Shown: positions 8,964-27,281, counted from the stretch's first letter. The stretch: 64,000 bases of DNA from a virus (IMGVR_UViG_3300036766_000185:1-64000); one strand, 5' to 3'. Notes: generated from the letters alone by a model not told the origin. Numbers and translations are program-made.

Positions 8964-9965
8964 TTACACTGGTTCGGTTAAACCCGCACCGGTAATCTTA
9001 GCCTGGAACGCCTCGCATGTGATTTGAAGAACAGTAAACTCAGCTACCAGCGTTCGGTAAGCGGACTGCAGAAGAGCCAAGTCAATAGCGCTCAGCGGCA
9101 TAAGGTCAACCATCTGAATTGCGTTGCCATCCTCAAGCACCGTCTTGTCATCGAGCACAAGAATAGATGCCTCGTCATCCCCATCTGGAGGAAGATAACG
9201 AGAACCGATAATGTCAACCGTACCGAATGGAGAAGTCCATCGAGTAACGCTGACACCGGCTGGAACATCAGCCATCGAACCAGCACCGGCCTGAAATAGG
9301 CGGTAGAACGAGCCAAGAACAAGCTCGCTGATTCGCTGCACTTCACGATAACCTGCAACCACACACTGAGGTTTGCCACCCTTGTTAACGATTTCTCGTT
9401 CTTGGTCAGTAATATCTGACAAAGAGAGTGCAACACCCATTAGATCTTTGGTGTTGGTGACGGTCTGCTTGAGCAAACCATCGTACTGCAAACCAGCACC
9501 GACAGAAGAATCGCCATTTATAATAGCCCATTCTTCCATCAAGGCCACGTTCAACATCTTGACCTTGATCTGATGCTTTTTAACGTCGGTGTAAGTCGCG
9601 CCTGCCATTTGGTCGAAGAACGTCACCGCAACCACATCACCAAGGCTCGTGTACGGAGCGCTTAGATATTTGTAGCTCGGAGTCGTTGCTCCCGGAAGAC
9701 CACCCTTCTCGAAGAACCCGTTAGCCGGATTCGTACCCAAGAAGAGACCTTCAGCAGCACTCGTCGGAACCAAACGATACCAAGAGTGGGCTTTGCCATT
9801 CCCTTGAATTCGGTTCAAACGGTTGCGCAGAGGGGTGTCCGTCGGGGCCATGATAGCCATCTCGGACTGTAGATCTTCTCTGACCAGCAGCAGACCAGAC
9901 ACGTCCACAGACGATATCGCCTTCTGGATGTCTTGAATGGCCTGATCAACTACTTGTGCATTCAT
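8964..9965 (-). CDS. Major capsid protein (HK97 fold)
   Basis: 333 aa; PTDTPLRNRL, EEWAIINGD, YDGL, SPFGTVDII; follows prohead protease; GGAG RBS. Confidence 0.85.
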   Translation of the reverse strand: MNAQVVDQAIQDIQKAISSVDVSGLLLVREDLQSEMAIMAPTDTPLRNRLNRIQGNGKAHSWYRLVPTSAAEGLFLGTNPANGFFEKGGLPGATTPSYKYLSAPYTSLGDVVAVTFFDQMAGATYTDVKKHQIKVKMLNVALMEEWAIINGDSSVGAGLQYDGLLKQTVTNTKDLMGVALSLSDITDQEREIVNKGGKPQCVVAGYREVQRISELVLGSFYRLFQAGAGSMADVPAGVSVTRWTSPFGTVDIIGSRYLPPDGDDEASILVLDDKTVLEDGNAIQMVDLMPLSAIDLALLQSAYRTLVAEFTVLQITCEAFQAKITGAGLTEPV

Positions 9966-10285: not shown

Positions 10286-11608
10286 TTAACTCTTTCGAAT
10301 ATCCCCGCCGAATTTTCGGTCAAGGGACTTGTTGATTAAGGACTCGCGTTTCTGTGCTAGCTCTGGAGGAAGATCCTTGTGTGGATTAGCCTTCACCCAA
10401 GCGTGGACTTCATCGTAATCCTTCTGAATTGTATCCTCTTCAGTTGTCTCATAAACCTTGTTAATTTTGTTGTATTTACGAGGAAGAGGTTCCTTCTCCA
10501 ATTTCTCAATCTTCTCTTGAAGAGTCGCCACGGTCTTTCGAAGATCTTCTACGCCGTCGCTCTTAGCTACTTTCACAGCGCCGTCTTCTGCATCTTCATC
10601 TGCGCCATGATCTGCCGCGTCTTCTGCATCAGCCGGTTTGTCTTTCTTTTTAACTGGAACCGCTGGTGTTTCTTGAGTCTTAAGATCGGACGTAGCTGGA
10701 TCTTTCGCCTTCTCTACTTCAGCCTCTTTCTTAACAGGAACAGCCGGAGTTTCTTGCGTCTTCAAGTCAGAAGTTGCTGGGTCTTTCGCCTTCTCGGTCG
10801 GTTCGCCTTCAGCTTCTTTCTTGACGGGCACGGCGGGAGTTTCCTGAGTCTTAAGATCGGAAGTGGCCGGATCCTTAGCTTTCTCAGTAACGTCTTCTTT
10901 AGCTTTCTCTTTCTCAGCTTCAATCTTCGCTTTGAGTTCTGGCGGCATTTCACCCTTGAGCAATTTGCCAATATTCTCAATTAATGAATCAATCTTGCCA
11001 GTAAGTTCTTTGACTAGAGTTGCGTCCATATCTACACTTTCACCTCCTGCTCTCTTCTCAGTTTCCAAAGAGTCGTTTGTTAGATCTGCACTCTTTTGTG
11101 TATCTTCAACTACCTCTGTTTGCTGCAGAGTTCCATCATCTGCCATCTTTACCAACGTAAATGTCGATTCTGGATTGGCAGGGTTATCTACGAGCGAAAG
11201 CTCATTAAGACGGTACTTGGTGATTCTGGTAATCTGTCTATCTTTCCCACTGTCTGCATCTTTAATAATCTGAACACTTTTGTCTAGCGTATTCCCACCG
11301 ATACTAAATCCGGTTAAAATACCCTCTTTCACTTTTGTCCAAGTATCCTCGGCTCCTTTAGAAATGTAAGCCTTCACATACACTGACTTGGTTTCATCAT
11401 CAGGAATAATCTCAATGGCTTTACCAACCGCGATAGGATTATGCATCTCGCGAACTGCGCCTGCCCACTCCTTAAAGGCGGCTTTGGAAGCACCGTAGTC
11501 CACGATCTCTGACTGTTTGTCCACCGCCTCGGTCGTGGCATAGCCGGCAACAGTTCGAGCTTCTTTATCGACCTTCAAAATTGGAACGTAAAAGTTCAAA
11601 TTGTTCAT
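10286..11608 (-). CDS. Prohead protease fused to scaffold region
   Basis: VAGYAT...VDKQSE, EMH, GFSIGG, ELSLVDNPANP (HK97/XkdF-type protease), followed by charged low-complexity scaffold. Confidence 0.9.
   Translation of the reverse strand: MNNLNFYVPILKVDKEARTVAGYATTEAVDKQSEIVDYGASKAAFKEWAGAVREMHNPIAVGKAIEIIPDDETKSVYVKAYISKGAEDTWTKVKEGILTGFSIGGNTLDKSVQIIKDADSGKDRQITRITKYRLNELSLVDNPANPESTFTLVKMADDGTLQQTEVVEDTQKSADLTNDSLETEKRAGGESVDMDATLVKELTGKIDSLIENIGKLLKGEMPPELKAKIEAEKEKAKEDVTEKAKDPATSDLKTQETPAVPVKKEAEGEPTEKAKDPATSDLKTQETPAVPVKKEAEVEKAKDPATSDLKTQETPAVPVKKKDKPADAEDAADHGADEDAEDGAVKVAKSDGVEDLRKTVATLQEKIEKLEKEPLPRKYNKINKVYETTEEDTIQKDYDEVHAWVKANPHKDLPPELAQKRESLINKSLDRKFGGDIRKS
10646..10885 (-). 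repeat. Three copies of EKAKDPATSDLKTQETPAVPVKK in the scaffold
   Basis: Identical 23-aa unit three times with different synonymous codons; boundaries approximate. Confidence 0.9.
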
Positions 11609-13045: not shown

Positions 13046-13369
13046 CTACGCTACTTGACCTGGGTCTGGCTCTAACCCTAGCCTAACTCGGTCAGCATTC
13101 GACATAACGTTCTTAGGCTTTATCTTGTCACCAGAGAAAAAGAACTTACCACCCCCACCAGCGTCTCTCATCGTCTCTTCTTTAAAACGAAGCTTCTTGG
13201 GATCTCTAGTACAATCAAAACTCGATCCGTCGTCATGATGTACTTTGAACGTGTTCTGCCCAGTTCTCTCCATCTTAGTAGGCTGAGAGTTCGTCTGAGC
13301 ATGTTTCTTGCTAATACACTTCTCTTGCCCTTTATGTAATCTAGTTCTGGGAGTGATCAGATTGCTCAT
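13046..13369 (-). CDS. Hypothetical protein
   Basis: ORF overlapping the end of the MuF-like gene. Confidence 0.5.
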   Translation of the reverse strand: MSNLITPRTRLHKGQEKCISKKHAQTNSQPTKMERTGQNTFKVHHDDGSSFDCTRDPKKLRFKEETMRDAGGGGKFFFSGDKIKPKNVMSNADRVRLGLEPDPGQVA

Positions 13370-16300
13370 TTAGTCGCTCTTTTCGTTTAGCTTCAACTCG
13401 TGCACGTGCTGCTGCTACGATTCTAGCCCGCTCTCCAATCTTGGGAGCATCTCCAGATCCTGACTCCGCCCCTCCTTTGTGCTCTTCAACGTATACTCCC
13501 TCTTTCGGAAACAGAAATCCGCCATCTACTACATCATTAGCCGAGATAATCCCTTTGTCCTCTAGTTCGTTTATCGCCTGAGCGTGAGTACTAGCACCAC
13601 GAACGTAATATACCGATCCGTCTGCAGTTCTAATCGTAGACAACACCGACTCCGGGTTCTTTTCATAAACCTTAGGAGGATTCTTGGGATCGTATTTTCC
13701 GTGATTCTGTCCCTCACTCTCAGATTTAGACTCACCAAATCTTCCTTTTTCATCTCTTGGATGAAGTGATTCAGTGAACTCTTTAGTCATATCACTCCAC
13801 ATCGTTTTGACGACTTTCTGATTTTCTCCCTCTTTGAGTTTAAATGATCGATATACGATCGCTCTAGTTACAGCAGTTAGACCTTCAGTCAAATAGAGTT
13901 CGTTTTTATAGCTAGACCACTCAGCAGGAGTAAGCTCATGTACGTTAGATTTGTCCTTTGGCAGAGGGATTGTATACTCAGACGGATCGAATCGAATTCC
14001 TTCGCTCTCTGCTACGCTTCCAGAATCTGAGAACTGCCCATGATTATCGCGAGGATGAAGGTCTTCTGACCATTCAGCTTTAGAGACTTCTCCTGTTATC
14101 TTCTCATAAGCCGCTTTAGTCGCAGGAATATAAACCGTGATGCTATCATCCTCTTTGTGCACCGCTGTAATCCATTCCGCTTTAATGTGATCCAGCATAT
14201 ACGACTGGTCAGGATCTTCAGTATCTCGCTGCGCATTCTTCTTGAAATAATCCTTGGGAATTCTAGCTTCAATCACGACCGGCGTGGCATCTTTCTCGTC
14301 GCTAAACGCAACTGCCATTTCCGCATAGGTTTGAGCATGCGCAGAATATCTAGTAACAAAGACTTTCCCTTCTCGCAGCTTAGCTTCTCTTCCGGGACCA
14401 ACTTGAGCCTCCTGATCAAAGACGTGATATTTCCCTACTTTTAACCCAGTTTGGAGGATAGACTTAACGTTCGATTCGACGGTTCCGTGGTAAACGAGCA
14501 CCGCGGAAAACTTCCCTCTATCGTCTCGTGGGTGAGATTCTTCAGTCCAATCGGCCTTCTCGATTTTTAATCCGGGAAATGAGTAGATATGCGTCCCATT
14601 CGACAATACGTGAATCTCCAGACTTGATGAAGACGCTTCGCTCTTTTTAACGTATTCTTTCCCATGGAAAATGTTCGTCTTGTACCAGGAATAGGTCTGA
14701 GGGGTGGTCTGTCTCATTTTCCCTGGAGACTCGATGTATGCTCGAAATAGTCCAGCCAAAAGTTCTACGGGTCCACCTTGCTCACCCTTGATTAGCACTT
14801 TTTCTACGGGTTCGTCTACAGCATGTCTGAGCAAGCTAGCACCTGGCTCCTTTGTCATGTCAGTTCTCCCAGCGCCAAAGTGTCCTGCTTCATGTAAGAG
14901 TACCGTCTCAAGAGATGGGGCTTTAGACCAATCTGCATTGGCATTTATAATGAGTTTTCCAGACTTGGGATCGGAGAAAGCAAAAGTAAGCTTGGCATTC
15001 TCCTCGTCTGGTTTGATTCCGGCCTCGTACATCTCTGCAGCGATAGATCCGCCTCTAAACTTTGCGCTGGTGAATTGATTTGTTACTTCAACTGTTTTAA
15101 TCTTGTCAGCAATTTGTGAAGGAAGTTTATCTTTTATAACAGTCATTGTATCGTTAACTTGGGTACGTACCAGAGAGAGAGTCTTTCTGTCTACAATTTC
15201 CTTCTCCCGTCTCCAAGCAATCCCTGCAGTACCACCACCACCTGCAGCGTAGGTAGCGGTCTCCCCGAATCTTCCACCTGCGTCCCTAGGGTGAAGCTCC
15301 TCGGTCCATTCGCCCTTGTTAATCTTCTGGGCTTCACGTCGGTCGATCTCTGCTAGAACCGATTCCCAATCACCTGTGAAAGCGACCGCTCTATCATCTA
15401 TGTAGTACGATGCTAGAGGCTTTCCCTGATTGGCGTCCTCTGGCTGATTGGGATTGTGATTGATAGCAGTAAACGGGATCTCATGATCGCCTAAGTAGGT
15501 CTCAATCGCGGCTGTATCTCCGCGACAAGTGTGAACAATAATCGTATAGCCTCTGTTTTTGAGTTCTATGAGGGCTTCTTTAGCGCCAGGAAGAACCTTA
15601 CCAAATCGTTTATCGTTATACTCTGGCTTTTCAAGAATTGTTCCGTCTAAATCAACAGCGATCGTTTTAGCTTCGATAGGCTCAGCCTTAGTAACTTTTG
15701 TGGAATCGCCCTCGTCGGGAGGCTGCTCAGAAGGTTCAAACAATTCTATACATCTGCAATTCGTAAGACATTCATTAGAACCGGCTTCATTTGCAAAATC
15801 GTCAGTTGTCATCCACTGATCATCGTTAGCTTCGCACCCATCGCATACGCGGTCATCGTGCACTGTATGCCAAATGCCGCCTTCTACCACATCTCCAATG
15901 GGTAACCCTGTTTCTTCATCTATAATAGGTTCTCCTGTTGGATCGCCGTTCTCATCCACCCCCTGAACATCCTTGATAGACTGACTCATTCCAGCGGCTA
16001 GCAGAATACTACCGGCAGCGGCTGCAAACATTCCTAGACGCCCTAAATCTGAGTTCTGAGCGTCTCCCAGTTTCTGCGTCAGGTCTTCGTCTGATAGCCC
16101 CTCGTCAGCAAGCATTTCTGAATATTGCTCATAGGCATCGTCTGATAACTTGTCAATGTACTCGTCATTCCAAGCGAGCTTGTCGTTCAATACTTCTTGA
16201 TCAACAGGAGTAACTGCATCATCGACTTCTTGATTGGTGAGAGCTTGCCCACGATTCTTGCCCAAGATGTAGGCGCTGGCAAATGCAGTCGTAGCAGCAG

Positions 16301-16823
16301 CTTTTAATGCCTCATTCATCTGATCAATCTTCGGCTTAATTAGCTTATCTTTTTGTGCGCGAAGATACTTCATGTACAAAACTTGTCTACGATCGGGGTC
16401 GGACTCTCGATTCACTTCAGCTAACGTATCAGGAGCATCATCGTTCGCTTTCATAAACTTCTTTACGCTGTCAGGATGAAGAGAGTTCACGATCTCTGTG
16501 TGATGCTGTTTCCAAATACTAAGAAGATTGCCTTTATAACTCTCGATGATTCTATCGAGTTTTTTCCCAATTTTAATGGGGACTGACCGTTTCCTCATAA
16601 TGGAAAGGTAGTCCCCATTAAACTCAATAGCGCTGATTAGTGGATATGACTTCGTTGTAGTTATAAAGATAGCTTTGTCGTTATAGACCTTACGCAACTT
16701 TTCTATAGGCTGAGGAACGTCGAGGTCTAGGTGCATTTTCGGGATTATATTTACCTTTATTGATAATCTTCCACAGCTTTTTCTTAGGCAGTCTATTTTT
16801 AATTCTGTGCCTAGCCGGAACAA
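13341..16823 (-). CDS. MuF-like head morphogenesis polyprotein with HAD phosphatase, zincin-like and ADP-ribosyltransferase-like modules
   Basis: Next to portal; WHTVHDDRVCDGC...CLTNCRC (MuF-like); IAVDLDGT...YIDDRA (HAD); HEAGH (zincin); YHGT...GL...VFVT...YA (ART-like); true start uncertain. Confidence 0.8.
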   Translation of the reverse strand: MFRLGTELKIDCLRKSCGRLSIKVNIIPKMHLDLDVPQPIEKLRKVYNDKAIFITTTKSYPLISAIEFNGDYLSIMRKRSVPIKIGKKLDRIIESYKGNLLSIWKQHHTEIVNSLHPDSVKKFMKANDDAPDTLAEVNRESDPDRRQVLYMKYLRAQKDKLIKPKIDQMNEALKAAATTAFASAYILGKNRGQALTNQEVDDAVTPVDQEVLNDKLAWNDEYIDKLSDDAYEQYSEMLADEGLSDEDLTQKLGDAQNSDLGRLGMFAAAAGSILLAAGMSQSIKDVQGVDENGDPTGEPIIDEETGLPIGDVVEGGIWHTVHDDRVCDGCEANDDQWMTTDDFANEAGSNECLTNCRCIELFEPSEQPPDEGDSTKVTKAEPIEAKTIAVDLDGTILEKPEYNDKRFGKVLPGAKEALIELKNRGYTIIVHTCRGDTAAIETYLGDHEIPFTAINHNPNQPEDANQGKPLASYYIDDRAVAFTGDWESVLAEIDRREAQKINKGEWTEELHPRDAGGRFGETATYAAGGGGTAGIAWRREKEIVDRKTLSLVRTQVNDTMTVIKDKLPSQIADKIKTVEVTNQFTSAKFRGGSIAAEMYEAGIKPDEENAKLTFAFSDPKSGKLIINANADWSKAPSLETVLLHEAGHFGAGRTDMTKEPGASLLRHAVDEPVEKVLIKGEQGGPVELLAGLFRAYIESPGKMRQTTPQTYSWYKTNIFHGKEYVKKSEASSSSLEIHVLSNGTHIYSFPGLKIEKADWTEESHPRDDRGKFSAVLVYHGTVESNVKSILQTGLKVGKYHVFDQEAQVGPGREAKLREGKVFVTRYSAHAQTYAEMAVAFSDEKDATPVVIEARIPKDYFKKNAQRDTEDPDQSYMLDHIKAEWITAVHKEDDSITVYIPATKAAYEKITGEVSKAEWSEDLHPRDNHGQFSDSGSVAESEGIRFDPSEYTIPLPKDKSNVHELTPAEWSSYKNELYLTEGLTAVTRAIVYRSFKLKEGENQKVVKTMWSDMTKEFTESLHPRDEKGRFGESKSESEGQNHGKYDPKNPPKVYEKNPESVLSTIRTADGSVYYVRGASTHAQAINELEDKGIISANDVVDGGFLFPKEGVYVEEHKGGAESGSGDAPKIGERARIVAAARARVEAKRKERLNEQSDHSQN

Positions 16824-17034
16824 TGATACTCAGAATGTCATCATCTAAAACAAGAATATTCCCACAGTTAGAGCAGATCAATCCCTGTGCAACTATCCCT
16901 TTGTGAGGACGAACTAGTTGCTCTACTGGAGATTCAATCATACCAGAGCAATAGTTACATATAATAACTACGTTATCTGGAGAGGTCTGTACGAAGAGAG
17001 ATCTTTTATTTGTCTTTTGCGATGGTCTTCGCAT
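16690..17034 (-). CDS. Zn-ribbon protein
   Basis: CNYC...CSNC; overlaps both neighbours. Confidence 0.5.
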   Translation of the reverse strand: MRRPSQKTNKRSLFVQTSPDNVVIICNYCSGMIESPVEQLVRPHKGIVAQGLICSNCGNILVLDDDILSIIVPARHRIKNRLPKKKLWKIINKGKYNPENAPRPRRSSAYRKVA

Positions 17035-18865
17035 CTTCGAATCCGATCTTGATAGTGGCGTCTATTCCCTTCTCTTGTAGGGATTGTACGACCTCTTTTA
17101 ACATTTCATGCTGTTTATCGATCGGTTTTCGACGATTAACTTTCATAGCAACCACGCCTGTAGTGGGTGCTTTCTCTTCTTCAGGTTTAGCAGCGACTTC
17201 TTCCTTCTTATCTGATTCTTTAGGAGTTGGTTTCTCTCCAGGCTTAGGAGTCTCTTTCAAATTCTGATTCGGAGCGCCCTGCTCTTTATCAGCAGCGGCT
17301 TGCTCGTCAATATCTTCACGCCCTTCTTCTTTGGCTGCAAGATCAGAAACGGCCACTACTTGCGGAGTCGCGATAGTAACGGTATCTCCGCCATCGACCG
17401 GTTTCAATCCTAGTTTCTTTCTTCGTTCGTTGATGGACAGCACACCATGTTCAATATCTCGTGCATCCACGTTTGATTCCTTCTCTTGATCAGCAACGTC
17501 TGAGTCCTGCCACACAAACTTAATATCTGAGTAAGGCTTCCCGTAATTAGAGTCAAAAATTTCCTTCTTAACAATCTCTGTGTTGTAATATTGCTGTAGT
17601 AAATGAAAGACCGTCTGAATCCCTCTAGCTCGTGAAATTCCCTGCTGTGTTTCACTTGTGGTTCGATGATAGTCCACAACGAATCCAATATCCTGACCTG
17701 ATAGGCCGTAACAAGCAGTCTTAATGGCAAGAGTCCATTTGAGATACTCCATCATCTGCATATCTCTGTTGGACATATTTCTGATGGGAATAAACTTAGA
17801 GTTCTCGCTCCCACTAATAAAGAGCATCTTGTGTAGACCACCACGACCCTTAATTTCGTTCTCCCACATCGATTGAAAGTTAGTTCTTTGATCGTCGGTT
17901 ACATCTTTTCCTAAATCAAAGACGCCTGGCGGAACGTTAGAGTTCTTAAAGTAATCGATGTTGTATTCATCTGCATAGATGCTCGCTGTGATCACGTACG
18001 CAGCTACCTCTAGTGGGCTAATTCCGTATCCGGATGCCTGAGGATTCGACACCATATAGATCAATTCATCTTTGGTAAATTCGGCTCGAATTATACCGCC
18101 ATCTTCCCAAACGAACGCGGGGTCCGGAGGAAGAGGAATTGTGCGATCCTCATTTCTGTAGATTCGCACATCTTTTCCCGGAATGTGATAGAGTTCAGCT
18201 AGCTCTCCACGATGATTTAGATTCTTTACTAGACAACCGGCATCGTAAATTAAAATGTCGTCTAATAGCAAGTCTTGTAGAGTCCTAAATGTTGATTCGA
18301 CTCCGCGCTCGGATGGAGTGCTAAAGATCTTTTTAACTGGCTCTATGTGGCTTTCTGCCTCGGCCCGTATCTGTCTGACTACAGAAGCAAAATACCATTG
18401 AATCGCCTTTTTCTTTTCCGACATGGCAGTTGGCTCTGTCATGATCTTCTTAAGCGTAGAACTAATATCATTCACTAATTTAGGATCAAGCTTGTCCGTA
18501 TGAAAATCATTCAGATTTCCTATCGCATACGGGGATAGATGAGACAACGCATATTCTTCCCATCGATCTACTTCTTGCTCGACTGCTTCGGTATCAATGT
18601 CAATATCCCACTCTGCTTGATTTACGAAGGCTCGAATGGTCCTTCGAATCGCCCACGTAATTGGGTCGGAGTTGGCAAGTCTGCTTAGAGTCTCTGCATT
18701 CAGCGTAAATAACTTCTGCTGTTTTTTGTTTACAGAGGTGTTCAAAAATCTCCACAGACCTTTTCGAGGCTCAGGATCTCTTGGATCTGGCTCTGTTTTC
18801 TTAGCAAACATAAATTGCTTGATGCTGTTGACCAGCCCAGATGAATTACTTTTGCTTGGTGGCAT
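17006..18865 (-). CDS. Portal protein
   Basis: YGISPLE, YFKNSNVPPG, DMQMMEY, SINERRKKLGLKPVDGGD (HK97-like portal). Confidence 0.9.
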   Translation of the reverse strand: MPPSKSNSSGLVNSIKQFMFAKKTEPDPRDPEPRKGLWRFLNTSVNKKQQKLFTLNAETLSRLANSDPITWAIRRTIRAFVNQAEWDIDIDTEAVEQEVDRWEEYALSHLSPYAIGNLNDFHTDKLDPKLVNDISSTLKKIMTEPTAMSEKKKAIQWYFASVVRQIRAEAESHIEPVKKIFSTPSERGVESTFRTLQDLLLDDILIYDAGCLVKNLNHRGELAELYHIPGKDVRIYRNEDRTIPLPPDPAFVWEDGGIIRAEFTKDELIYMVSNPQASGYGISPLEVAAYVITASIYADEYNIDYFKNSNVPPGVFDLGKDVTDDQRTNFQSMWENEIKGRGGLHKMLFISGSENSKFIPIRNMSNRDMQMMEYLKWTLAIKTACYGLSGQDIGFVVDYHRTTSETQQGISRARGIQTVFHLLQQYYNTEIVKKEIFDSNYGKPYSDIKFVWQDSDVADQEKESNVDARDIEHGVLSINERRKKLGLKPVDGGDTVTIATPQVVAVSDLAAKEEGREDIDEQAAADKEQGAPNQNLKETPKPGEKPTPKESDKKEEVAAKPEEEKAPTTGVVAMKVNRRKPIDKQHEMLKEVVQSLQEKGIDATIKIGFEDAKTIAKDK

Positions 18866-19268
18866 TATTCTTTCGACTCCTATATTTCTTATCTAATGCG
18901 TCTGTGATCGCAACAACAATCTTGTGTTCAATTTTATCCGCTTGTCGAATGAATGTTTTTCTGGCTTTAGGGCTGTCAACGTGATTTCGAACAATTTCTG
19001 CTAACAATTCTGCGTATTCGTTGAATCTTGTATGTAAAAGTTCGTGAATGACTGTTCTCTCTACTTCCTGAGGCTCTTTTAATAGTCGTGTTCTATTAAT
19101 GTCGATCGCGACTTCTCTAGTCTCATCGTCCGTATCCACACGAGCATAATCACCACTTATAGACGAATTGCTTACATAGTTAAGAATGAACTTGTAGTCT
19201 GAAATTCCCAATTCGTTAGCCCAATGACCGATACTCTTCGCGAGCTTGATACCCCACGCATCTTTCAT
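18846..19268 (-). CDS. Zincin-like metallopeptidase
   Basis: TVIHELLH HExxH motif with downstream EH. Confidence 0.65.
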   Translation of the reverse strand: MKDAWGIKLAKSIGHWANELGISDYKFILNYVSNSSISGDYARVDTDDETREVAIDINRTRLLKEPQEVERTVIHELLHTRFNEYAELLAEIVRNHVDSPKARKTFIRQADKIEHKIVVAITDALDKKYRSRKNNATKQK

Positions 19269-19534
19269 TGTTGAGCTTTCCTTTTTAAATCGGCCATTAA
19301 ATCTATCTTATCTTGTACGCTAAGAGGCTTCCCAAGTTCTTGTAGGCCTCTGCAATCGTAGCATCTCTTCACTGTGCAATCGGAGCAATACTGACTCCAG
19401 TATCCAATTCTAGTCAGAAATAGAAGAATCTTATCCTTGTCAATTCGAGTCTCTGATGCTATCTCGTTAACGGTATGCCCAGCCTTGAAGAGACGCACTA
19501 TTACCCCTTGACTTTCCGAGGGTATGGAGTACAT
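19265..19534 (-). CDS. HTH protein with Cys cluster
   Basis: GHTVNEIASETRI helix-turn-helix; CSDC...CYDC. Confidence 0.55.
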   Translation of the reverse strand: MYSIPSESQGVIVRLFKAGHTVNEIASETRIDKDKILLFLTRIGYWSQYCSDCTVKRCYDCRGLQELGKPLSVQDKIDLMADLKRKAQQ

Positions 19535-19569
19535 GTTTAGCTACTCCTATATTTAAAGTGTCTACAAAT

Positions 19570-19875
19570 TTACGCGCTGTCTAAACTTCCAGCGCGGGAA
19601 TCTATATATGCCGTATCAGTTCGAACTTGATTTCCAGGTTCGGAGTGCATAATGTCTTTCCCCTGTCCAGATTGACGTTGCCCATAAGCCTCGTCTTTTT
19701 TGCGTGGCTTTTTCTCGTCGTCTTTCTTGGGAAAAATAGCTGATCTAGTATCTGGAGGCTCTGTCGCCGAATCAGTTTGAGGAGATAGAACGTTGTTATC
19801 TCCTATTGTCTTCTTCAACGAAACGAGAACGTCCTTCAACAAGATCAACGTTTCTTGATTCATATTAGTGTACAC
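19570..19875 (-). CDS. Hypothetical protein
   Basis: ORF in operon. Confidence 0.5.
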   Translation of the reverse strand: MYTNMNQETLILLKDVLVSLKKTIGDNNVLSPQTDSATEPPDTRSAIFPKKDDEKKPRKKDEAYGQRQSGQGKDIMHSEPGNQVRTDTAYIDSRAGSLDSA

Positions 19876-20161
19876 CAGGGAGCAATTTCTTCACTGCCCA
19901 GATAGCTGTAGCGATGGTAACAATTCCTTTTAAGCAGACTGAAACAAATCTAGAGATCGCATCCAAATCACCCATCTTTCGATGAATGGAGTCCAATACC
20001 ACATTTTGTTCTGCTAATATCGTGGGAATGTGATTGTCTACTTGATCGCTGATATGTCCAACTGTCAATTCTAGGGCCGTAAGGCGATGCTCGATTGAAC
20101 TATCAGACATTGCTCGTGATTTCTTTACTTTGTTAGTCATAGCCTTGTGTAAGCCTTTCAA
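19865..20161 (-). CDS. Coiled-coil protein with C-terminal hydrophobic helix (holin-like architecture)
   Basis: IEHRLTALE coiled coil plus hydrophobic C-terminus. Confidence 0.45.
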   Translation of the reverse strand: MKGLHKAMTNKVKKSRAMSDSSIEHRLTALELTVGHISDQVDNHIPTILAEQNVVLDSIHRKMGDLDAISRFVSVCLKGIVTIATAIWAVKKLLPGVH

Positions 20162-20163
20162 CG

Positions 20164-20451
20164 TTATCTTATAGTCTTAATCGATAGATGAACCAGTAGC
20201 AGTACCCAATTTAACAGCATTCCTGCTAGCAACAACCAACCTGTTCCTGGGTCTTTCTCAACAAGATGCTCGAAGATCTGCGTAACAGTGTATCCTGTGT
20301 ACATGAACGAGGTAGCTTCGACCAAACAAACCTGCAGAAAGATCGACAGCCACAGCAGCGACATTCCGTACATCTGTTTGTACCAGAATATGCCTGATAG
20401 TGCTAGCCAGTTAATTGCAAACGCCACTAGATATTTGTCAGCGAGATTCAT
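20164..20451 (-). CDS. Small multi-pass membrane protein
   Basis: About three hydrophobic segments. Confidence 0.55.
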   Translation of the reverse strand: MNLADKYLVAFAINWLALSGIFWYKQMYGMSLLWLSIFLQVCLVEATSFMYTGYTVTQIFEHLVEKDPGTGWLLLAGMLLNWVLLLVHLSIKTIR

Positions 20452-20452
20452 A

Positions 20453-21748
20453 TTATTGCTTGACGTAGCTTACTAGAAGCACGTCTCCTGTTAGTGGGGC
20501 TGTGTTGAAGGTGATTGTGTCTGCTACTATTGTGTAGTCGTTGGTCATCCCAGGAGCCTGTAGAAGCCCGTTAAGATAGACCGACACCGTTCCTGCTCCA
20601 GGAGTATTGGCTAGAACAAATGTATCGTTCACACCGTTGATATCCCCAGAGGGAATTTCATTAGCAACGTAGTCTGATGTGATAACAACTTCATCTAGAT
20701 AGGCCAGTCCATGATCCACGCTAGACCCATCTTTCCAATGGATACGCTCATCATCAGCCGACGACACAAAAAGAGAATCATCTGCAATATCCACCGCGGC
20801 TTCAAATGCTATGAAGTTAATCATCGTCGGTCCGGTGCCATTAGTCAAACGAACGGCTCCTGGAACAACGATACCGAGACTATCAATAGCAAGTCTAGCT
20901 TCTGCCATACTGAAGTTCCCTTCAGCGGCTAGGTTCTGAATGATACTAACGGTCTCTGGACCAGAAACGGAGACCTTCCACAGTCCTGATGTTACTGGTT
21001 CTCCGTCTTTGTAGAGTATTACACTTGGATCTGTAGCGTGTTGAATCTGCACCGGATGAAATATCTGCACCTGATCAGTCACCGCATCTATAATCAGATG
21101 ATTTATTGTACCAGTGAATAGTCCATCATCGTTGTTGTCAGAATCGATCTTCAGAACTTCTTCACTGAACTCATCAGCACGAGTCAAGAAAATGCGCCAA
21201 TACTTGTTCCCTCCTTGACCCAGATGATAGACCAATCCTGCACCGTCGAATGAAGAATCATTAAGAAGAGTAGCCAATCTCCATCTTAGCTCTGTAGTGT
21301 TAGGCTGCTGTCCATCGCTCACTATCCCTATGTCGTCAAAAGTATGTATATCACCCGTCACGGTTCCAATCAGACCATGTACGGTTGGGCTGCTTCCTGT
21401 CCCGCTTACACGATAGATCTTGTGTTGCTTCATTCCTATCGCATTAGACCAATTGATACGGTTGAAGTTAGTATCGTCTAGAACGTCGTTGCCCTCGGTA
21501 GTTGATGCTGAACCAGAAGCAACAGTCTCTCCAGATATCGCAACTCCGACTATTTCATATGTCCAAGTTGCAACTCCAGTTGTTCCCTGAGCGAGCACAC
21601 CTAGAATGCTTGGAACCTCAGCACTTCGTAGCAACGCACCACCAGTCTGCTCTAATTTGAATCCTTGAATATCAGCAGTAGACGATACATCGGCATCTTC
21701 TAGCGTGTGATCTAATACTTGTCTTCCAGAAACTTGTGTCCTAGGCAT
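20453..21748 (-). CDS. Fibre-like virion protein
   Basis: N-terminus MPRTQVSGRQVLD and C-terminal NEIPSGDING...DYT domain shared with other fibre genes. Confidence 0.7.
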   Translation of the reverse strand: MPRTQVSGRQVLDHTLEDADVSSTADIQGFKLEQTGGALLRSAEVPSILGVLAQGTTGVATWTYEIVGVAISGETVASGSASTTEGNDVLDDTNFNRINWSNAIGMKQHKIYRVSGTGSSPTVHGLIGTVTGDIHTFDDIGIVSDGQQPNTTELRWRLATLLNDSSFDGAGLVYHLGQGGNKYWRIFLTRADEFSEEVLKIDSDNNDDGLFTGTINHLIIDAVTDQVQIFHPVQIQHATDPSVILYKDGEPVTSGLWKVSVSGPETVSIIQNLAAEGNFSMAEARLAIDSLGIVVPGAVRLTNGTGPTMINFIAFEAAVDIADDSLFVSSADDERIHWKDGSSVDHGLAYLDEVVITSDYVANEIPSGDINGVNDTFVLANTPGAGTVSVYLNGLLQAPGMTNDYTIVADTITFNTAPLTGDVLLVSYVKQ

Positions 21749-21777
21749 TGATTATGTCCGTCCTCTCATGAAATCTT

Positions 21778-22059
21778 TTACTTTTCTTGATTTACAATCT
21801 GGTCAGCCGTCTCAGGAGTCTTGACTGCCTTCTCAGCGATCGCGAGTCTTGCTTCGTGCTCTTTTTCAGCCTTAACCACATCTGCAAGCATTTCTTCCGT
21901 CAGAATCTTTGCCCCTTCGATCCTCAGGACTTGCTCTCTGGTAACGCTAAGCTGATTAGTCAAACGCGTAACTATCAACTGTCCCTCGGCTAGTTCTCTT
22001 CGCAGCATTTGAAGGCGTGCGTCATACACTCTTTTTACGGCCTCTGATTCGATTTTCAT
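21778..22059 (-). CDS. Hypothetical coiled-coil protein
   Basis: GGAG RBS; heptad pattern. Confidence 0.5.
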   Translation of the reverse strand: MKIESEAVKRVYDARLQMLRRELAEGQLIVTRLTNQLSVTREQVLRIEGAKILTEEMLADVVKAEKEHEARLAIAEKAVKTPETADQIVNQEK

Positions 22060-22074
22060 TTTAATCTCCTAGGG

Positions 22075-22296
22075 TTAAACTATCTCATCTTGAACAACTC
22101 TATCCAGACACGTCCCGCATAGGGCGCAAAAGGTCTCAAGGTATTTTCTTACTTTGTTTTCTTCACTTTGCGGGAGAGTTGATGTTAGTTGACGAAAGAC
22201 TATGACCTTCTTCGCACATGAGGGGCATAGGTATAGCTCTTCTTTGCTTATACTATCTGGGGTTTGAGTAGATGGAAGTTGCGGAAGCTGTTCCAT
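22075..22296 (-). CDS. Small Zn-ribbon protein
   Basis: CPSC...CALC. Confidence 0.5.
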   Translation of the reverse strand: MEQLPQLPSTQTPDSISKEELYLCPSCAKKVIVFRQLTSTLPQSEENKVRKYLETFCALCGTCLDRVVQDEIV

Positions 22297-22709
22297 TACT
22301 TAGCCTCAGGAAGCTTTATGTACGGCTTCGGGCCATGTCGAACACCTAGATCTTCTCTAGTCAAATTGAGACCGTCTACTGACCCCTCAGAAATCTGCTT
22401 CATGAGAGTGTCAGTGCAGTCAATCAGTTTGCTCAGTGATTGTAGTAACAAATCTGTGTTAGTCATTGCCTTTAGCAATTTCTCTGTTTTCCCATCATCC
22501 CAAACAATATCTGTCGCATCGCCATGTCCATGAATTTCTTTCACATCGGCTATACTGTCAAACACTGTCGTGGTAGCTGTCGTGGTAGCTGTCTCAGTCA
22601 GCCAACGCATAGCAACTTTCCCATCGCCGAAGACCACACCCTCAGCAACTTTGCCAGTCCCGCTATGCCCGGAAACGTCTACATGACGATCAAGATGAAA
22701 TTGTTTCAT
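22296..22709 (-). CDS. Conserved phage protein
   Basis: DVSGHSGTGKVAEGVVF.DG...HGHG motif recalled from phage hypothetical proteins; contains a 12-bp tandem duplication at 22565-22593. Confidence 0.65.
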   Translation of the reverse strand: MKQFHLDRHVDVSGHSGTGKVAEGVVFGDGKVAMRWLTETATTTATTTVFDSIADVKEIHGHGDATDIVWDDGKTEKLLKAMTNTDLLLQSLSKLIDCTDTLMKQISEGSVDGLNLTREDLGVRHGPKPYIKLPEAK

Positions 22710-22752
22710 TATTTTCTCGGATAATCTTCTTAACCTTCCTCTTAACCAACGC

Positions 22753-23211
22753 TTATCGGCTAAGAAGTGCTGCTAAGATACTTGCAGCCTGAATCGCTCC
22801 CATAGCCGCTTCAACAACTGACCAATTCATCCAGTTGTATCTCAGCGATAATCGATAGAGCGGGATGAACGTCAAAGCCGCGACTATCGGCCATGCAAGA
22901 CGTGCACTGAGGAGACACGCCGGTACACCCAATGATAATCCAACGACTACTCTCTGCCACCAACGCGTTGACTCTCCGTAGCCCAAGGAATTAACTATAC
23001 CTAATCCTATAGCTACTCCTATGCTCTGAACCCAGGGGACATTATTAAGGACGCAGACGGCACCCGCTACGATAGGCCATACTATTCTTCGGAATGCTTT
23101 CCCGATAGCTGGAAGTCCTTCGTCTGGAATTCCGTCGTCTCCGTACCCATATCCTCCTAAGTACCAGAGGACTGCTCCGATCGGAACGAGCAGCAAATTT
23201 AACAGCATCAT
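22753..23211 (-). CDS. Integral membrane protein
   Basis: Several TM segments; LGG...RR...SLGYG pattern. Confidence 0.6.
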   Translation of the reverse strand: MMLLNLLLVPIGAVLWYLGGYGYGDDGIPDEGLPAIGKAFRRIVWPIVAGAVCVLNNVPWVQSIGVAIGLGIVNSLGYGESTRWWQRVVVGLSLGVPACLLSARLAWPIVAALTFIPLYRLSLRYNWMNWSVVEAAMGAIQAASILAALLSR

Positions 23212-23368
23212 CCTATCTTCTCCACAACGTAGAGATCCTTGCCGTCTTTGTTAGTATCAAGAACTCTCCAATAACCGACGATAGTAGTGAACTCATCACC
23301 TACTTTGAGCTTACGTCCTAGTTTTGCTTCAAGTGCTTTCCACGAAACGGTCTGCACCTCGCTTGTCA

Positions 23369-24421
23369 TTACTCTTGCTCGTTAGCTTCCGAAAGTTCTA
23401 ACGACAGAGCGGACAAGATCGTTTCTGCGATCTGACGCATACTATCAACGATCTGACCATAGGAATCTGCAATTTCAGGGTCAACTGAATGACGTGCTTG
23501 CATAGCCTTCATATCGCCTGCAAGTCCGACGACTCGCTCTAGTGAGGAGAGCAAATCCTGAAACGGGGTGGGCATCATCGGCATAGATTGTGCTGGAGTC
23601 GGAAGAATGTCTCCGTCTTTCTTGACTTTCTCATCTCCACCCTGCTCATGAACGATGTAGTTGGCCAGAGCGTGTGGATCCTCTACTCCTGGCTTGTCTT
23701 TGACCGCTTCATAGACCTCTGTATGAGAGGGACTACCCTTCTTTACGGGAATATCTGTCGTCTGATTAACTGCCAGTGGTCGAGCTTCTTCTATATGACA
23801 CTTGACTAGCAAATACGCAATCTCATGCGTCTGAAGACCATTAGCCCACTTGACTACTGCACGATCGTTAACTACGTTCAGAACGACACCCTTAACGATT
23901 TGCTGTCCAGTACGAGCGAAATTCTTAACAACTTGATCACCAATCTTGACTGGATCAACAGCGACAAATTTAGCTGCTGGCTCAGTCGTTACTGGTAGCG
24001 CTTGAGGAGCGTTAGTCGGATTGCTTACGTCGATCTGTATCTTGTCTGACAAAGCTTGCTCTTCCGTAGTAACTGTTTTACCCTTCTCATCTACGTCTGG
24101 GAGCTTCTCTCCACCTCTCAATGATTCATCGGGTTGAGCATCATTGTCATGCGTCGGAGTCGCTTTGGTGTCTGATATGGGACGCACAGCCTCTACTCTA
24201 GTCGGAGTCTGCATCTGTTTCTTAAGATCAGACTCTTTTTCTTTTCGAAGCTCGGTCCCTGTAACGATACGAACTGTCTTCTGTACTGTCTTTTTGCTGT
24301 CCATCATCGCGTCAAATAGCTTACGCGAATAATTTTCTTCTTCCGTAGACAACAAGATAGACTGCGCTCTCTTAGAGAGAATCGTCTTGATCTTGTCATT
24401 GTCGAATTTAAACTCTGCCAT
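23369..24421 (-). CDS. Hypothetical protein, probable head cargo
   Basis: Low-complexity linkers around small modules (VKDKPGVEDPHALA); GGAG RBS. Confidence 0.55.
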   Translation of the reverse strand: MAEFKFDNDKIKTILSKRAQSILLSTEEENYSRKLFDAMMDSKKTVQKTVRIVTGTELRKEKESDLKKQMQTPTRVEAVRPISDTKATPTHDNDAQPDESLRGGEKLPDVDEKGKTVTTEEQALSDKIQIDVSNPTNAPQALPVTTEPAAKFVAVDPVKIGDQVVKNFARTGQQIVKGVVLNVVNDRAVVKWANGLQTHEIAYLLVKCHIEEARPLAVNQTTDIPVKKGSPSHTEVYEAVKDKPGVEDPHALANYIVHEQGGDEKVKKDGDILPTPAQSMPMMPTPFQDLLSSLERVVGLAGDMKAMQARHSVDPEIADSYGQIVDSMRQIAETILSALSLELSEANEQE

Positions 24422-24426
24422 TTTAA

Positions 24427-25986
24427 TTACTTCCCTCCTTCGGGGCCACGATTAAGTGCACTTAGTAAGTCTCTTAGTTTTTCGAGCAAATCCGCTTTTG
24501 TTAGCTTCTTATGTTCATCGTTAGAGCGCAGTTCTTCGGCTAATCGTGAAGCTTCACCCATGCGCTCATCTTGATCATCATATTGATGTTTAGGATCATT
24601 CTCTTTATACTGATTGGGAGCGTCTTTTGAGCGCTCTGCTTCTACTCGTTCTCTAGCCGCGCCACTAGCACGACCAACTACTCTGGAGTAGCTCTCACGG
24701 GCATCCTGTTTGTCTTTCGTAGACATTCCATCCCACTTCTCTTTATCAACAGTAGGAGGACGATGGAGGCTTTCTGCTCCGCCGCCCGCAGAAAACTTTC
24801 CGTCTTCCCCACGTGGGTGTTGAGACTCGTCGTATTCCTTAGAAAGATCACCAGTCTCACTAGCTTTCTTCTTATGTTCTGCTAACCAATCCTCTGCATC
24901 CTGACCCAGATGAGAAGCCATTTCCTCTCGAAGAGTGGGATCCGTTGAAGACATAGAATCAATACGCGCCTGTACTTTATCTGAAAATTCGCTCAAGTCT
25001 GCATCTCCATTGTCAACAGCCCGCGCCTCACTAGCCGTTAACTGCCCGCGCACGTAATCCGCGTCGTCCATAGCCAGACCAGTCATAGTCTCTTTTGCTG
25101 CTACTATGAGTGTCCTATCATTAAGAACTTGATACCCTCTATCAACAGCGGCTTGTAGAATTTGAGCAGGTTCTTTGTTGCCTTTAAAATAGGGATGAGA
25201 GAGCCACTTATCAGCAGCGGCCTTTGATTCTCTCGTCTTCACATTTGCTAAATATTCTTTACCCGACATATGCTCGCTTCTAGCTCTTCGCGCTTCAACA
25301 GCCGCTCTGGCCCCTACTGCTGCACGTTCTTGACTGGGACGCTCTTCGCCTCCACCTGCACCGAATTTACCATCAGAGGATCTAGGATGTTTGGCTTCAT
25401 CAAAATCTTTTTGAGTGTCGCCCGAATCGATCGCTTTTTCACCCTTGGGGCGATCTTCTAGATCACGCTCTCTAGCGGCATCGTGCTCGGTATCTATACG
25501 AGTTTGCTCCTTAGCACCACCCTCAACCTTCGGCTCTCTTAGACTTGCGGTTTCCATATACTCTAATTGCTCACCAATTTGTTGAATAGCATATTTGGCT
25601 GCTGCCACTTTATCACGGCTGACTGCTGTAGGATTTTTCTCTGCTCGTCTTAGATCTCTGTGCGCTTGCACTAGAGCTACTCTAAGCCTCTCATAGCGCT
25701 TAGCAGCTTCTCCCATTGGAGCACCGCCACCTTCTCCAAATTTACCATCGCTGGCTCGTGGGTGTTTTCCCTCTTCCCAATCACCTTTAGCAAATTTCTC
25801 AGCGTCGTACTCGTCTAGGAATTGCTTGGCTCCTGCTACATCGTCGTCTGCACCATCCCAGCCAAGTTCTTGCGCTCCATCAATGTAGTCCTGATCAGTT
25901 TGCTTATTAATCAGCGTAAGATCTCGCTTAGCTAGATCATTTCGCTGGAGAAACCCCAGAGCGTCTATGAGCTTGTGTATGTTCAT
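24427..25986 (-). CDS. Probable internal head polyprotein with three HPR-tag repeats
   Basis: KGDWEEGKHPRASDGKFG, KDFDEAKHPRSSDGKFG, KEYDESQHPRGEDGKFS. Confidence 0.7.
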   Translation of the reverse strand: MNIHKLIDALGFLQRNDLAKRDLTLINKQTDQDYIDGAQELGWDGADDDVAGAKQFLDEYDAEKFAKGDWEEGKHPRASDGKFGEGGGAPMGEAAKRYERLRVALVQAHRDLRRAEKNPTAVSRDKVAAAKYAIQQIGEQLEYMETASLREPKVEGGAKEQTRIDTEHDAARERDLEDRPKGEKAIDSGDTQKDFDEAKHPRSSDGKFGAGGGEERPSQERAAVGARAAVEARRARSEHMSGKEYLANVKTRESKAAADKWLSHPYFKGNKEPAQILQAAVDRGYQVLNDRTLIVAAKETMTGLAMDDADYVRGQLTASEARAVDNGDADLSEFSDKVQARIDSMSSTDPTLREEMASHLGQDAEDWLAEHKKKASETGDLSKEYDESQHPRGEDGKFSAGGGAESLHRPPTVDKEKWDGMSTKDKQDARESYSRVVGRASGAARERVEAERSKDAPNQYKENDPKHQYDDQDERMGEASRLAEELRSNDEHKKLTKADLLEKLRDLLSALNRGPEGGK

Positions 25987-26250: not shown

Positions 26251-26520
26251 TTAAACTATTCCGTATCTATTGAGAAGATCTCTACAAGCAGCAAAATCCC
26301 AGAAAATCACTTCACCAAAAGGATTTATCGTCCAATGCATGAGAACGTTTTTCTTAGCTTTCTGTCCACAAGCCCAACATCTCCACCCATTTCGTCTGAA
26401 TCTTAAGCTATAAACTAAGTCAACGATCTCTAGTTCGTCGGGATAGAGTACGACTTTCACTAGAGACTTTTTTGCTCTAGCTCTCATCAAATTAATTAAC
26501 GCCAGTGCCGCTCGGCCCAT
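26251..26520 (-). CDS. Hypothetical basic protein
   Basis: CWACG; overlaps upstream gene. Confidence 0.45.
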   Translation of the reverse strand: MGRAALALINLMRARAKKSLVKVVLYPDELEIVDLVYSLRFRRNGWRCWACGQKAKKNVLMHWTINPFGEVIFWDFAACRDLLNRYGIV

Positions 26521-26938
26521 TGTTCCCAGTTCCAGAAGAATCTCCAGAAATTCGTTGTCGTTGAATTGCTCTACCCGTTATGATAGGAAGCTGGTTCTCT
26601 GGCATATTGTTATGAGAATTGATCGTATTGCCTTGTTCTGGTTTCTGCTTTAGTCTGCTGGGATCTATTACTGGAGGACTACTAATAGCCTCTCCGTAAG
26701 CGCGGTCTGCTTCTGTTTTAGTGAGGGATGCAGCTTGATCTCTCAAGGAGTCAACAAATTTTCTATGCTTGAAGTATTCGATCTGTCCTAAGCGCTTTTT
26801 AGCTCCTGCTTCAGAGTCATAAGTTCCCATAGGCTTGCCTGCTTCTGAATGGACTGTCCACTTACTACCTAAATGGGTGATGTACTTCTGAAGATTAAAC
26901 ACAAGCGCCTGCAGTTTATTCAGTGTAGATTCAGCCAT
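26492..26938 (-). CDS. Conserved phage head-associated protein
   Basis: Likely start MAESTLNK at 26938; KWTVHSEAGKPMGTYDSEAGAKKRLGQIEYFKH small domain recalled from phage head regions. Confidence 0.6.
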   Translation of the reverse strand: MAESTLNKLQALVFNLQKYITHLGSKWTVHSEAGKPMGTYDSEAGAKKRLGQIEYFKHRKFVDSLRDQAASLTKTEADRAYGEAISSPPVIDPSRLKQKPEQGNTINSHNNMPENQLPIITGRAIQRQRISGDSSGTGNNGPSGTGVN

Positions 26939-26939
26939 C

Positions 26940-27281
26940 TTATTCTGTGTCCTTATTCTTCGTCGCTTTGGCGCGTCTCGCTTTTGGGCTATCAGTTGTT
27001 TCTGTCTTTTTCGATTTAACTGCTCGCCACTCAGCAGAACTCTTAACATTCAATGATGTTGATTTATCAGACTTCCAGTTCCCATATTTCTTAACTAACT
27101 TCGTTTCAAACTCAACCATACACTTGCTAGAACAATAATGACTGGGACCGTCAATAGAGTCGGCGGAATGGCCGTAGGGATAGTAGACCATGATAGGTGC
27201 GCCAGGCATAACTTTCACACAGTTTTCACAAACATATTCTACCAGTTCTATCATGCCCGGCATTTGAGTTCGCTTAATCAT
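26940..27281 (-). CDS. Hypothetical Zn-binding protein
   Basis: Likely start MIKRTQ at 27281 (GGAG RBS, ATGA overlap); CENC...YCSSKC. Confidence 0.55.
   Translation of the reverse strand: MIKRTQMPGMIELVEYVCENCVKVMPGAPIMVYYPYGHSADSIDGPSHYCSSKCMVEFETKLVKKYGNWKSDKSTSLNVKSSAEWRAVKSKKTETTDSPKARRAKATKNKDTE

Follow-up and report, generated by a model that had tools for sequence, protein, structure and literature searches.

In the first 64 kb (the window) of the 96,181-bp genome of an uncultured phage (IMG/VR record IMGVR_UViG_3300036766_000185, rated complete by CheckV), two otherwise unrelated proteins, P0001 and P0002, carry seven copies of a 19-residue motif, the HPR tag, each of which lies behind a lysine. 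The reading we favor, although we regard it as an even call, is that these proteins form a phage-type polyvalent cargo system in which every module boundary is a two-part junction: a lineage-specific hydrophobic-x-Lys sequence plus one or two small or acidic residues, which would be the cut site of a Peptidase_S78 prohead protease, followed by the tag, which would be a universal mark of cargo. The two polyproteins would enter the procapsid, P0001 probably via a MuF anchor on the portal, and the phage's own S78 protease would cut after the junction Lys, giving each released module a new N terminus one or two residues ahead of its tag. The modules would then exit with the DNA at infection. The tag, distinct from the cleavage site, would be a portable signal for cargo handling, recognized by a conserved partner and involved in retention, exit through portal and tail, or a step after delivery. 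We infer cleavage, packaging, delivery, and the role of the tag from motif positions, the spread of the tag, module boundaries, and the match to the protease; on these grounds, the modules are probably cut apart in the capsid and delivered to the host.

A proposed two-part junction repeated in two polyproteins

The consensus of the tag, a linear motif usually followed by a Gly/Ser-rich linker, is [WFY]-x-E-x-x-H-P-R-D-x-x-G-[KRQ]-F, its genome-level form being [WFY]-x-E-x-x-HPR-x3-G-[KRQ]-F. A six-frame scan with the regular expression HPR.{2,5}G.[FWY] detected exactly seven copies in the window, every one of them on the minus strand (Table 1). Four belong to P0001 and three to P0002, and the rest of the 96,181-bp genome contains none. 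The junction Lys are residues 503, 756, 915, and 1014 of P0001 and residues 67, 193, and 383 of P0002. The initial annotation had described seven copies in two unrelated proteins, at coordinates that agree with our recomputed junctions, and the two proteins are indeed similar at a tag only (E value of 1.1e-5). It had also placed every copy behind a Lys, and this is what we observed, with Lys one or two residues ahead of the tag at all seven junctions and a hydrophobic residue (I, V, M, F, or L) two positions before the Lys at six of them, the exception being TQK. By composition alone, the chance of finding hydrophobic-x-K at all seven junctions is ~4e-11, a value that overstates independence because the seven copies are homologous. 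Hydrophobic-x-K sites without a tag that were listed earlier are all present as well (vertical bars mark putative or known cuts): IQK|AISS in the capsid protein, VTK|AEP before the HAD module of P0001, and LQK|YITH in the small protein encoded at 26492..27049.

The seven tag-coding stretches share 51% of their bases, and only 37% of the third positions at identical residues. Since the copies are saturated at synonymous sites, they are old, and the tag and its Lys have been kept by selection on the protein in this lineage. Could the tag-coding DNA nevertheless be a recombination linker for module shuffling, encoding a peptide with no function? Tags are indeed the places where modules have been shuffled and where homology blocks end. 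However, with such low base and third-position identity there is no DNA repeat to recombine on, and the amino acid motif is invariant across phyla. We therefore consider this explanation, which the low DNA identity largely refutes, extremely improbable. In the AlphaFold2 (AF2) model, the tag and junction have low confidence beside a well-folded ADP-ribosyltransferase (ART) core. With no stable structure predicted for it, the tag appears to be a linear motif in need of a partner. DNA as that partner, one of the roles proposed in the initial annotation, is unlikely because the tag is net acidic, and we rejected it.

P0001 combines several unrelated effector or enzymatic domains in one polypeptide, in the order MuF-like anchor, HAD, tag, zincin-like, tag, ART, tag, X, tag, and Y. 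The MuF-like domain aligns with the MuF cluster phrog_324 in hhalign (probability of 87.8%, E value of 3e-6, over 60 columns), which supports a MuF assignment of moderate confidence, and it probably anchors P0001 to the portal. The HAD identity of the next module is solid by its sequence matches, with Pfam Hydrolase_3 scoring slightly below the cut-off. The ART fold was recognized by Foldseek, with Tpt1/KptA as best matches (E value of 5e-5, probability of 1.00), PARP and Tpt1 sequence matches being weak. The zincin reading is a lead only, based on a HEAGH motif and a language-model match to ATLF/M90-type clusters; this module has no Pfam match, and a homolog search with it returned only the protein itself. 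For module Y, neither a family nor a homolog was found. In P0002, a leader is followed by three charged modules that all begin with a junction, and family searches gave no match for this protein. Its module B is homologous to tag proteins of two relatives (G007 and G036), where it is found in another order.

Three relatives share the protease and capsid protein of this phage, namely L003 (a fragment), L053 (genome G036), and L105 (genome G007), so that the clade comprises three complete genomes and a fragment. Their MuF proteins differ in module content. L003 has MuF, HAD, RelA-SpoT, tag, X, tag, ART, tag, and JAB; L053 has MuF, InPase, tag, Q, tag, and Z; and L105 has MuF, tag, ART, tag, and Z. 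The order of X and ART is swapped, X coming after ART in P0001 and before it in L003, and module Z, which is fused in L053 and L105, is a separate gene in L003, with a 24-residue leader ending in VAK| ahead of its tag. Polyvalent-specific domain families were not detected in P0001 itself, but its orthologs contain InPase PF18823 (L053, E value of 4e-59) and RelA_SpoT (L003, E value of 1e-20). Throughout the four relatives, Lys is found ahead of the tag in 23/23 cases, with a hydrophobic residue at P3 in 21/23. Leaders ahead of the first tag are not conserved.

The hydrophobic-x-K element also occurs at junctions that have no tag. It closes the variable linker after the MuF domain (VTK|A, VTK|V, IDK|A, or MMK|V among the four relatives), separates HAD from RelA-SpoT in L003 (FAK|A), and follows the protease domain in all four (TQK|S, IEK|S, LQK|V, or LKK|V). 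Moreover, the small domain YITHLGSKWTVHSEAGKPMGTY is encoded at 26492-27049 by a separate gene, with a leader ending in LQK, and in G036 (G036:C1:8570-9970) is fused after ITK to the end of a P0002-like tag protein. Judged by these sequences, LQK|YITH and ITK|YIRH represent an apparent fission or fusion at a tagless hydrophobic-x-K junction. In G007, a 526-residue protein (G007:C1:57410-58987, L251) displays a ParB/Srx-like DGHHR domain and then IDK|AAFDEAKHSRDEKGRF, a tag variant with HSR for HPR. Since the regular expression misses this variant, tag counts are lower bounds.

Alternatively, as Iyer et al. proposed for polyvalent proteins, release of the modules might fall not to the prohead protease but to the zincin-like module embedded in P0001, to a JAB module, or to a protease of the host. 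The HEAGH module of P0001, whose nearest Atlas clusters are of the ATLF/M90 type, would fit this scenario, and processing by zincin-like metallopeptidases is a theme of the literature on polyvalent proteins (PMC5512222). However, the zincin-like module, for which no family or homolog is detectable, is present only in P0001, L003 has RelA-SpoT and JAB, L053 and L105 have neither, and the junctions are the same in all. What all four relatives have in common is the S78 protease, and we regard release by an embedded peptidase or a host enzyme as highly improbable.

The lysine site and the head protease family

Among 667 unique tags, Lys is found within four residues upstream in 40%, with a peak at position -2 (18% vs. 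a background of 7.5%). The enrichment of Lys that the initial annotation anticipated in homologs is therefore detectable but far from general: ~60% of tags have no Lys, and Asp and Ala are as common as Lys ahead of the tag. We conclude that the Lys rule is a feature of this lineage rather than of the tag. When Lys is present with a spacer of 0-2 residues, 53-71% of the tags have a hydrophobic residue two positions ahead of the Lys, vs. a background of 26%. Since the hydrophobic P3 is kept whatever the spacer, the Lys site behaves as a block separate from the tag.

The protease encoded at 10286..11608, originally proposed to be of the HK97 type, is a Peptidase_S78, which was also found by a six-frame family search. 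Whether the putative cut site goes with the protease clade was a comparison set beforehand, for which we used 50 viral contigs. Six contigs encode a Peptidase_S78. Besides the four clade members, they include L034 and L082, whose S78 types differ from that of the clade. In all, at least three distinct S78 types are represented. In these contigs, K or R is found 0-2 residues ahead of the tag in 20/20 cases. In contrast, in the 16 contigs with DUF2213, an alternative head protease (PHROG "head maturation protease") on which a literature search returned nothing relevant, Asp occupies positions -1 to -4 in 21/23 tags and Lys is seen in 2/23. The pre-tag residue thus tracks the head protease family (Fisher p of 4e-4 per contig). 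The comparison favors the protease but is confounded by phylogeny, in that S78 and DUF2213 are markers of deep lineages and a single clade accounts for four of the six S78 contigs. Methylobacterium prophages with a protease of this phage's type display L/M/F-A-K ahead of the tag. A basic P1 has been reported in the HK97-like phage phi12, where the capsid protein and Ccm are cleaved, the sites being R128|L129 and K87|Q88 (PMC8569155). In the phage studied here, all seven junctions have Lys at the corresponding position, and AF2 confidence is low at the junction beside the ART core.

In 65 of the 268 Lys-type tags, the spacer is zero (K|W, K|F), and a cut would expose an N-terminal Trp, Phe, or Tyr. 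In bacteria, these residues are ClpS/ClpAP N-degrons. It is pure speculation that such exposure might limit the lifetime of injected modules.

Spread of the tag and alternative readings of the junction

The tag is widespread. The DNA pattern encoding W-x-E-x-x-HPRD-x-x-G-[KR]-F was detected in at least 118 contigs from viruses and in no fewer than 120 from bacteria, the latter spread over many phyla, and a profile built from 150 tags matched 4,463 representative proteins at E values ≤1e-3 among 1.84 billion, 464 of them at ≤1e-10. The top match is P0003, a protein of 7,334 residues with 20 matched tag stretches. In P0003 and in P0004 (5,313 residues, 16 tag stretches), the flank ahead of the tag reads F-S-x-(D)-W. 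This sequence is of neither the Lys nor the Asp type and suggests that there are further classes of cut site. Cultured phages with the tag, all matched only by a 30-residue tag query at E values up to 10 in a set of 50,697 phage records, include Xanthomonas PhiXhv-5/-7 (inside an annotated portal coding sequence), Pseudomonas syringae Orimi01 and Orisa01-03, and Burkholderia Bups phi1. A Lys-type tag query had no match in these records. A plasmid collection searched with the tag query at the same sensitivity also gave no match, which is not evidence of absence.

The proposal that the tag opens modules is borne out well beyond this genome. Homology blocks between tag proteins begin within 10 residues of a tag start in 23% of cases vs. 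4.5% for random placement (approximately fivefold, in an unmasked test), the ends of local alignments between different tag proteins pile up at the tag end, and among the four relatives modules are shuffled, fused, and split at tags. By these alignments, the tag is a module boundary. It also occurs at natural N termini. Among 301 sampled copies, 62 have an in-frame stop no more than 20 residues upstream, and Met is found 0-2 residues ahead of the aromatic residue in 43 of the 56 N-terminal tags that have a Met. A cut after the junction Lys would therefore create in this phage the same N terminus as in native N-terminal tags. The stand-alone proteins with an N-terminal tag carry modules characteristic of polyvalent proteins, namely zincin, JAB, lysozyme, or a glutamine-deamidase toxin domain.

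In viral contigs, the neighbors of tag genes encode portals, MuF proteins, terminases, capsid proteins, and proteases. A head marker was found at 32 of 120 genome loci under strict rules, a figure that is an undercount. In Streptomyces, giant proteins with an N-terminal tag come after a portal-MuF fusion. PBECR1 or PBECR3 nuclease domains are present in other tag proteins, two of which are informative. In a viral contig (L067:1245-3281), a PF06381 portal, a tag, and PBECR3 form one protein, while in Oligella sp. (L188:4914-6620) one protein combines a tag, PBECR1, and a DUF2213 head protease. The tag therefore also links cargo to the portal and to the protease.

Several observations weigh against a system of tagged modules that are cut apart, packaged, and delivered. 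To begin with, P0001 has 15 hydrophobic-x-K-[GASDE] sites in total and ten of them are within modules, so the short Lys site is not specific by itself. The conservation of IQK|AISS in the capsid protein is uninformative because the whole N terminus, including everything around the site, is kept in the relatives. Within-protein excess identity is even from -4 to +16 around the aromatic residue of the tag, so that pre-tag consistency in general could reflect concerted evolution of the whole unit, and the protease comparison has the phylogenetic confounding described above. Our literature searches found no cleavage, virion proteomics, or packaging data for any tag protein. For the packaging of portal-tag-cargo and MuF-tag-cargo fusions, the tag is dispensable. 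Finally, at two loci in Melainabacteria where head genes are absent within 8 kb, the neighbors of the tag genes are MBOAT/AlgX, AlaRS, Mur ligase, and GH57 genes, and the role of the tag may therefore not concern the capsid at all.

The even homogenization and the many tags without Lys would suit junctions that are never cut. P0001 and P0002 would then be intact beads-on-a-string polyproteins, in which the tag together with the few residues upstream would serve docking or spacing as a conserved linear motif between domains, hydrophobic-x-K being this lineage's form of its N-terminal flank. Iyer et al. note full-length transfer of some polyvalent proteins (PMC5512222). Yet hydrophobic-x-K is also seen at tagless junctions, moves as a block with a variable spacer to the tag, tracks the protease family, and ends where natural N termini lie, and the Lys is retained at every tag of the four relatives despite synonymous saturation of the copies. 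For these reasons, we think that uncut junctions are unlikely.

A second reading, to which we give equally little credence, places the main role of the tag outside the capsid. The tag would be a general handling motif of effectors and toxins, recognized for instance by a conserved bacterial factor after delivery or used in another route, and capsid loading would come from the MuF or portal fusion only. Its conservation across unrelated portal, capsid, and protease families and many bacterial phyla points in this direction, and so does its retention in fusions anchored by a portal or MuF domain, which have no need of a separate packaging signal. The same is true of the stand-alone toxin-domain proteins with an N-terminal tag, some of which are encoded amid housekeeping genes or, at one Melainabacteria locus, next to an RHS-repeat gene. 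However, most sampled tags are beside portal, MuF, terminase, or capsid genes, another Melainabacteria cluster adjoins terminase and phage lysozyme genes, and windows of 8 kb may miss degraded prophages or genes whose products load into a helper phage. Moreover, this reading is compatible with cleavage.

The Melainabacteria proteins (L244 and L245 in G004; L242, G001:C1:1-16000) are ~250-330 residues long, start with M-x-x-W-N-E-x-x-HPRD, and are present in several copies per small genome. Some are encoded amid housekeeping genes or beside an RHS/MORN gene, and one pair with a glutamine-deamidase toxin domain is encoded next to terminase and phage lysozyme genes. They may be stand-alone toxins, prophage remnants, or products of host or satellite genes that load into phage particles.

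A broader version of the cargo reading, which we put forward tentatively and hold to be rather less probable than its contrary, is that tailed phages universally use the HPR tag as a portable signal for cargo. It would be read by a component common to very different heads, or by the exit route through portal and tail, and each lineage would pair it with the cut site of its own protease (Lys for S78, Asp for DUF2213). If so, any protein placed behind a cut site and a tag would be loaded, released, and injected, and bacteria or satellites may exploit the tag to have proteins of their own carried in phage particles.

Relation to known systems and genomic context

The closest known systems are the phage-type polyvalent proteins, for which processing and delivery with the DNA have been predicted, with zincin-like peptidases as the favored processing enzymes (Iyer, Burroughs, Anand, de Souza, Aravind 2017, PMC5512222). 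As in those proteins, the head module encodes many effector domains in one polypeptide, joined here to a putative MuF domain and at other loci to a portal, and the domain vocabulary is the same (ART here; InPase PF18823, RelA-SpoT, JAB/RadC-like, and PBECR1/3 in relatives or other tag proteins). What differs is the two-part junction, with a cut-site half that matches the prohead protease family. MuF polymorphic toxins, like P0001 with its putative MuF domain, are products of the head module in which variable toxic or enzymatic domains come C-terminal to MuF (Jamet et al. 2017, PMC5576092), but they carry one C-terminal toxin with a downstream immunity gene, in contrast to the five modules and repeated junctions seen here. 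The tag is not mentioned in PMC5512222 (0 occurrences), PMC5576092 mentions no tag, linker, or cleavage, and literature searches by motif string returned nothing relevant. The 19-residue tag is therefore described nowhere in the literature we examined.

The T4 cleavage site is L/I-x-E, that of phiKZ is S/A/G-x-E, and HK97 is cut at K103|S104. T4 uses a capsid-targeting sequence with cleavage by gp21, and ejection proteins of phiKZ/SPN3US are cut by the prohead protease (PMC9026906, PMC5694885, PMC7411985). Here too, the sequences predict that internal or ejection proteins are loaded into the prohead and trimmed where a short site offers a defined P1 and, at P3, a hydrophobic or small residue. 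Unlike in T4, the putative P1 is Lys and the protease is an S78 enzyme, not one of the gp21 type acting on L/I-x-E. The analogy with the T4 targeting sequence drawn in the initial annotation fails on one point. The T4 element is an N-terminal leader that is removed, whereas the conserved element here comes after the putative cut and would be kept. In addition, the sites are repeated within polyproteins, and the tag is common to unrelated phage lineages, while targeting sequences of the T4 type are lineage specific. An S78 protease in the head module and a basic residue at the putative P1 are shared with HK97-type maturation (PMC8569155), which is known to act on the delta domain of the capsid protein, on the scaffold, and on the protease itself rather than on strings of effector enzymes. 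Another difference is that the protease here is fused to a scaffold-like region and that the capsid protein, of the SU10 type, has no delta domain.

Phages inject enzymes along with their DNA, and rules for the loading and release of this cargo are known from T4 and the phiKZ group. If correct, the system proposed here would allow injected effectors, among them anti-defense enzymes and toxins, to be recognized by sequence in any phage genome, would explain the free swapping of modules between phages, and would offer a simple handle on what carries cargo into and out of capsids.

All the genes discussed are on the minus strand, in the order terminase (weak match), P0002, portal, MuF-like P0001, HNH, S78 protease, and capsid protein (Table 1). 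The region had no megablast match in the 50,697 phage records, tblastn of P0002 or of long pieces of P0001 had none there either, and a search for related loci with P0002 returned nothing.

Table 1. Features of the window and tag records of cultured phages. Junction coordinates run from hydrophobic-x-K to the Phe of the tag.
Feature	Position	Strand	Evidence or remark
Major capsid protein, SU10_MCP family	8964..9965	-	PF17236, E value 4.5e-16; IQK|AISS at residues 13-19
Peptidase_S78 prohead serine protease fused to scaffold-like C-terminal region	10286..11608	-	PF04586, 25.5 bits (cut-off 21); phrog_9427, E value 3e-34
HNH/endonuclease VII-like gene	11565-12134	-	phrog_2255; inside head module, between MuF region and protease gene
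MuF-like polyvalent cargo protein P0001 (candidate)	13341..16736 (open reading frame listed as 13341..16823)	-	Directly downstream of portal gene
P0001 module Y, C-terminal	13344..13727	-	
P0001 junction 4, MTK|EFTESLHPRDEKGRF	13737..13790	-	
P0001 module X, ~75 residues, no identified function	13794..14021	-	Common to L003, phmmer E value 4e-21
P0001 junction 3, VSK|AEWSEDLHPRDNHGQF	14031..14087	-	
P0001 ART-fold module (Tpt1/KptA-like)	14088..14501	-	AF2 core predicted local distance difference test (pLDDT) 70-87; Foldseek best matches Tpt1/KptA
P0001 junction 2, IEK|ADWTEESHPRDDRGKF	14508..14564	-	
P0001 zincin-like module, HEAGH motif	14565..15251	-	Motif in sequence; nearest Atlas clusters ATLF/M90-type peptidases, 0.90-0.92
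P0001 junction 1, INK|GEWTEELHPRDAGGRF	15267..15323	-	
P0001 HAD-type phosphatase module, DxDGT motif	15324..15683	-	VTK|AEP ahead, no tag; phrog_1238, E value 7e-25; PDB 2obb, E value 2e-4
P0001 MuF-like head-morphogenesis domain with Cys4 motif	15699..16736	-	PF04233, 18.1 bits (below 29.6-bit cut-off)
Portal protein	17006..18865	-	PF04860, E value 1.5e-25; phrog_12
P0002, second tag protein, 519 residues	24427..25986	-	Between terminase (weak match) and portal genes
P0002 junction LSK|EY...	24793-24846	-	
P0002 junction TQK|DF...	25363-25416	-	
P0002 junction FAK|GDW...	25738-25794	-	
Small protein with conserved domain after LQK|YITH	26492..27049	-	Same domain fused behind ITK|YIRH at end of G036 tag protein
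Terminase, weak match	32373..34151	-	
Cultured-phage tag records	PV764598.1 2302-4398 (L247); PP179326.1		

The start of the P0001 gene is probably the ATG at 16736 and not the listed TTG at 16823, because the proteins of all three relatives begin at the homologous Met, as does the database representative P0030 (1131 residues, MHLDLDVPQP...).

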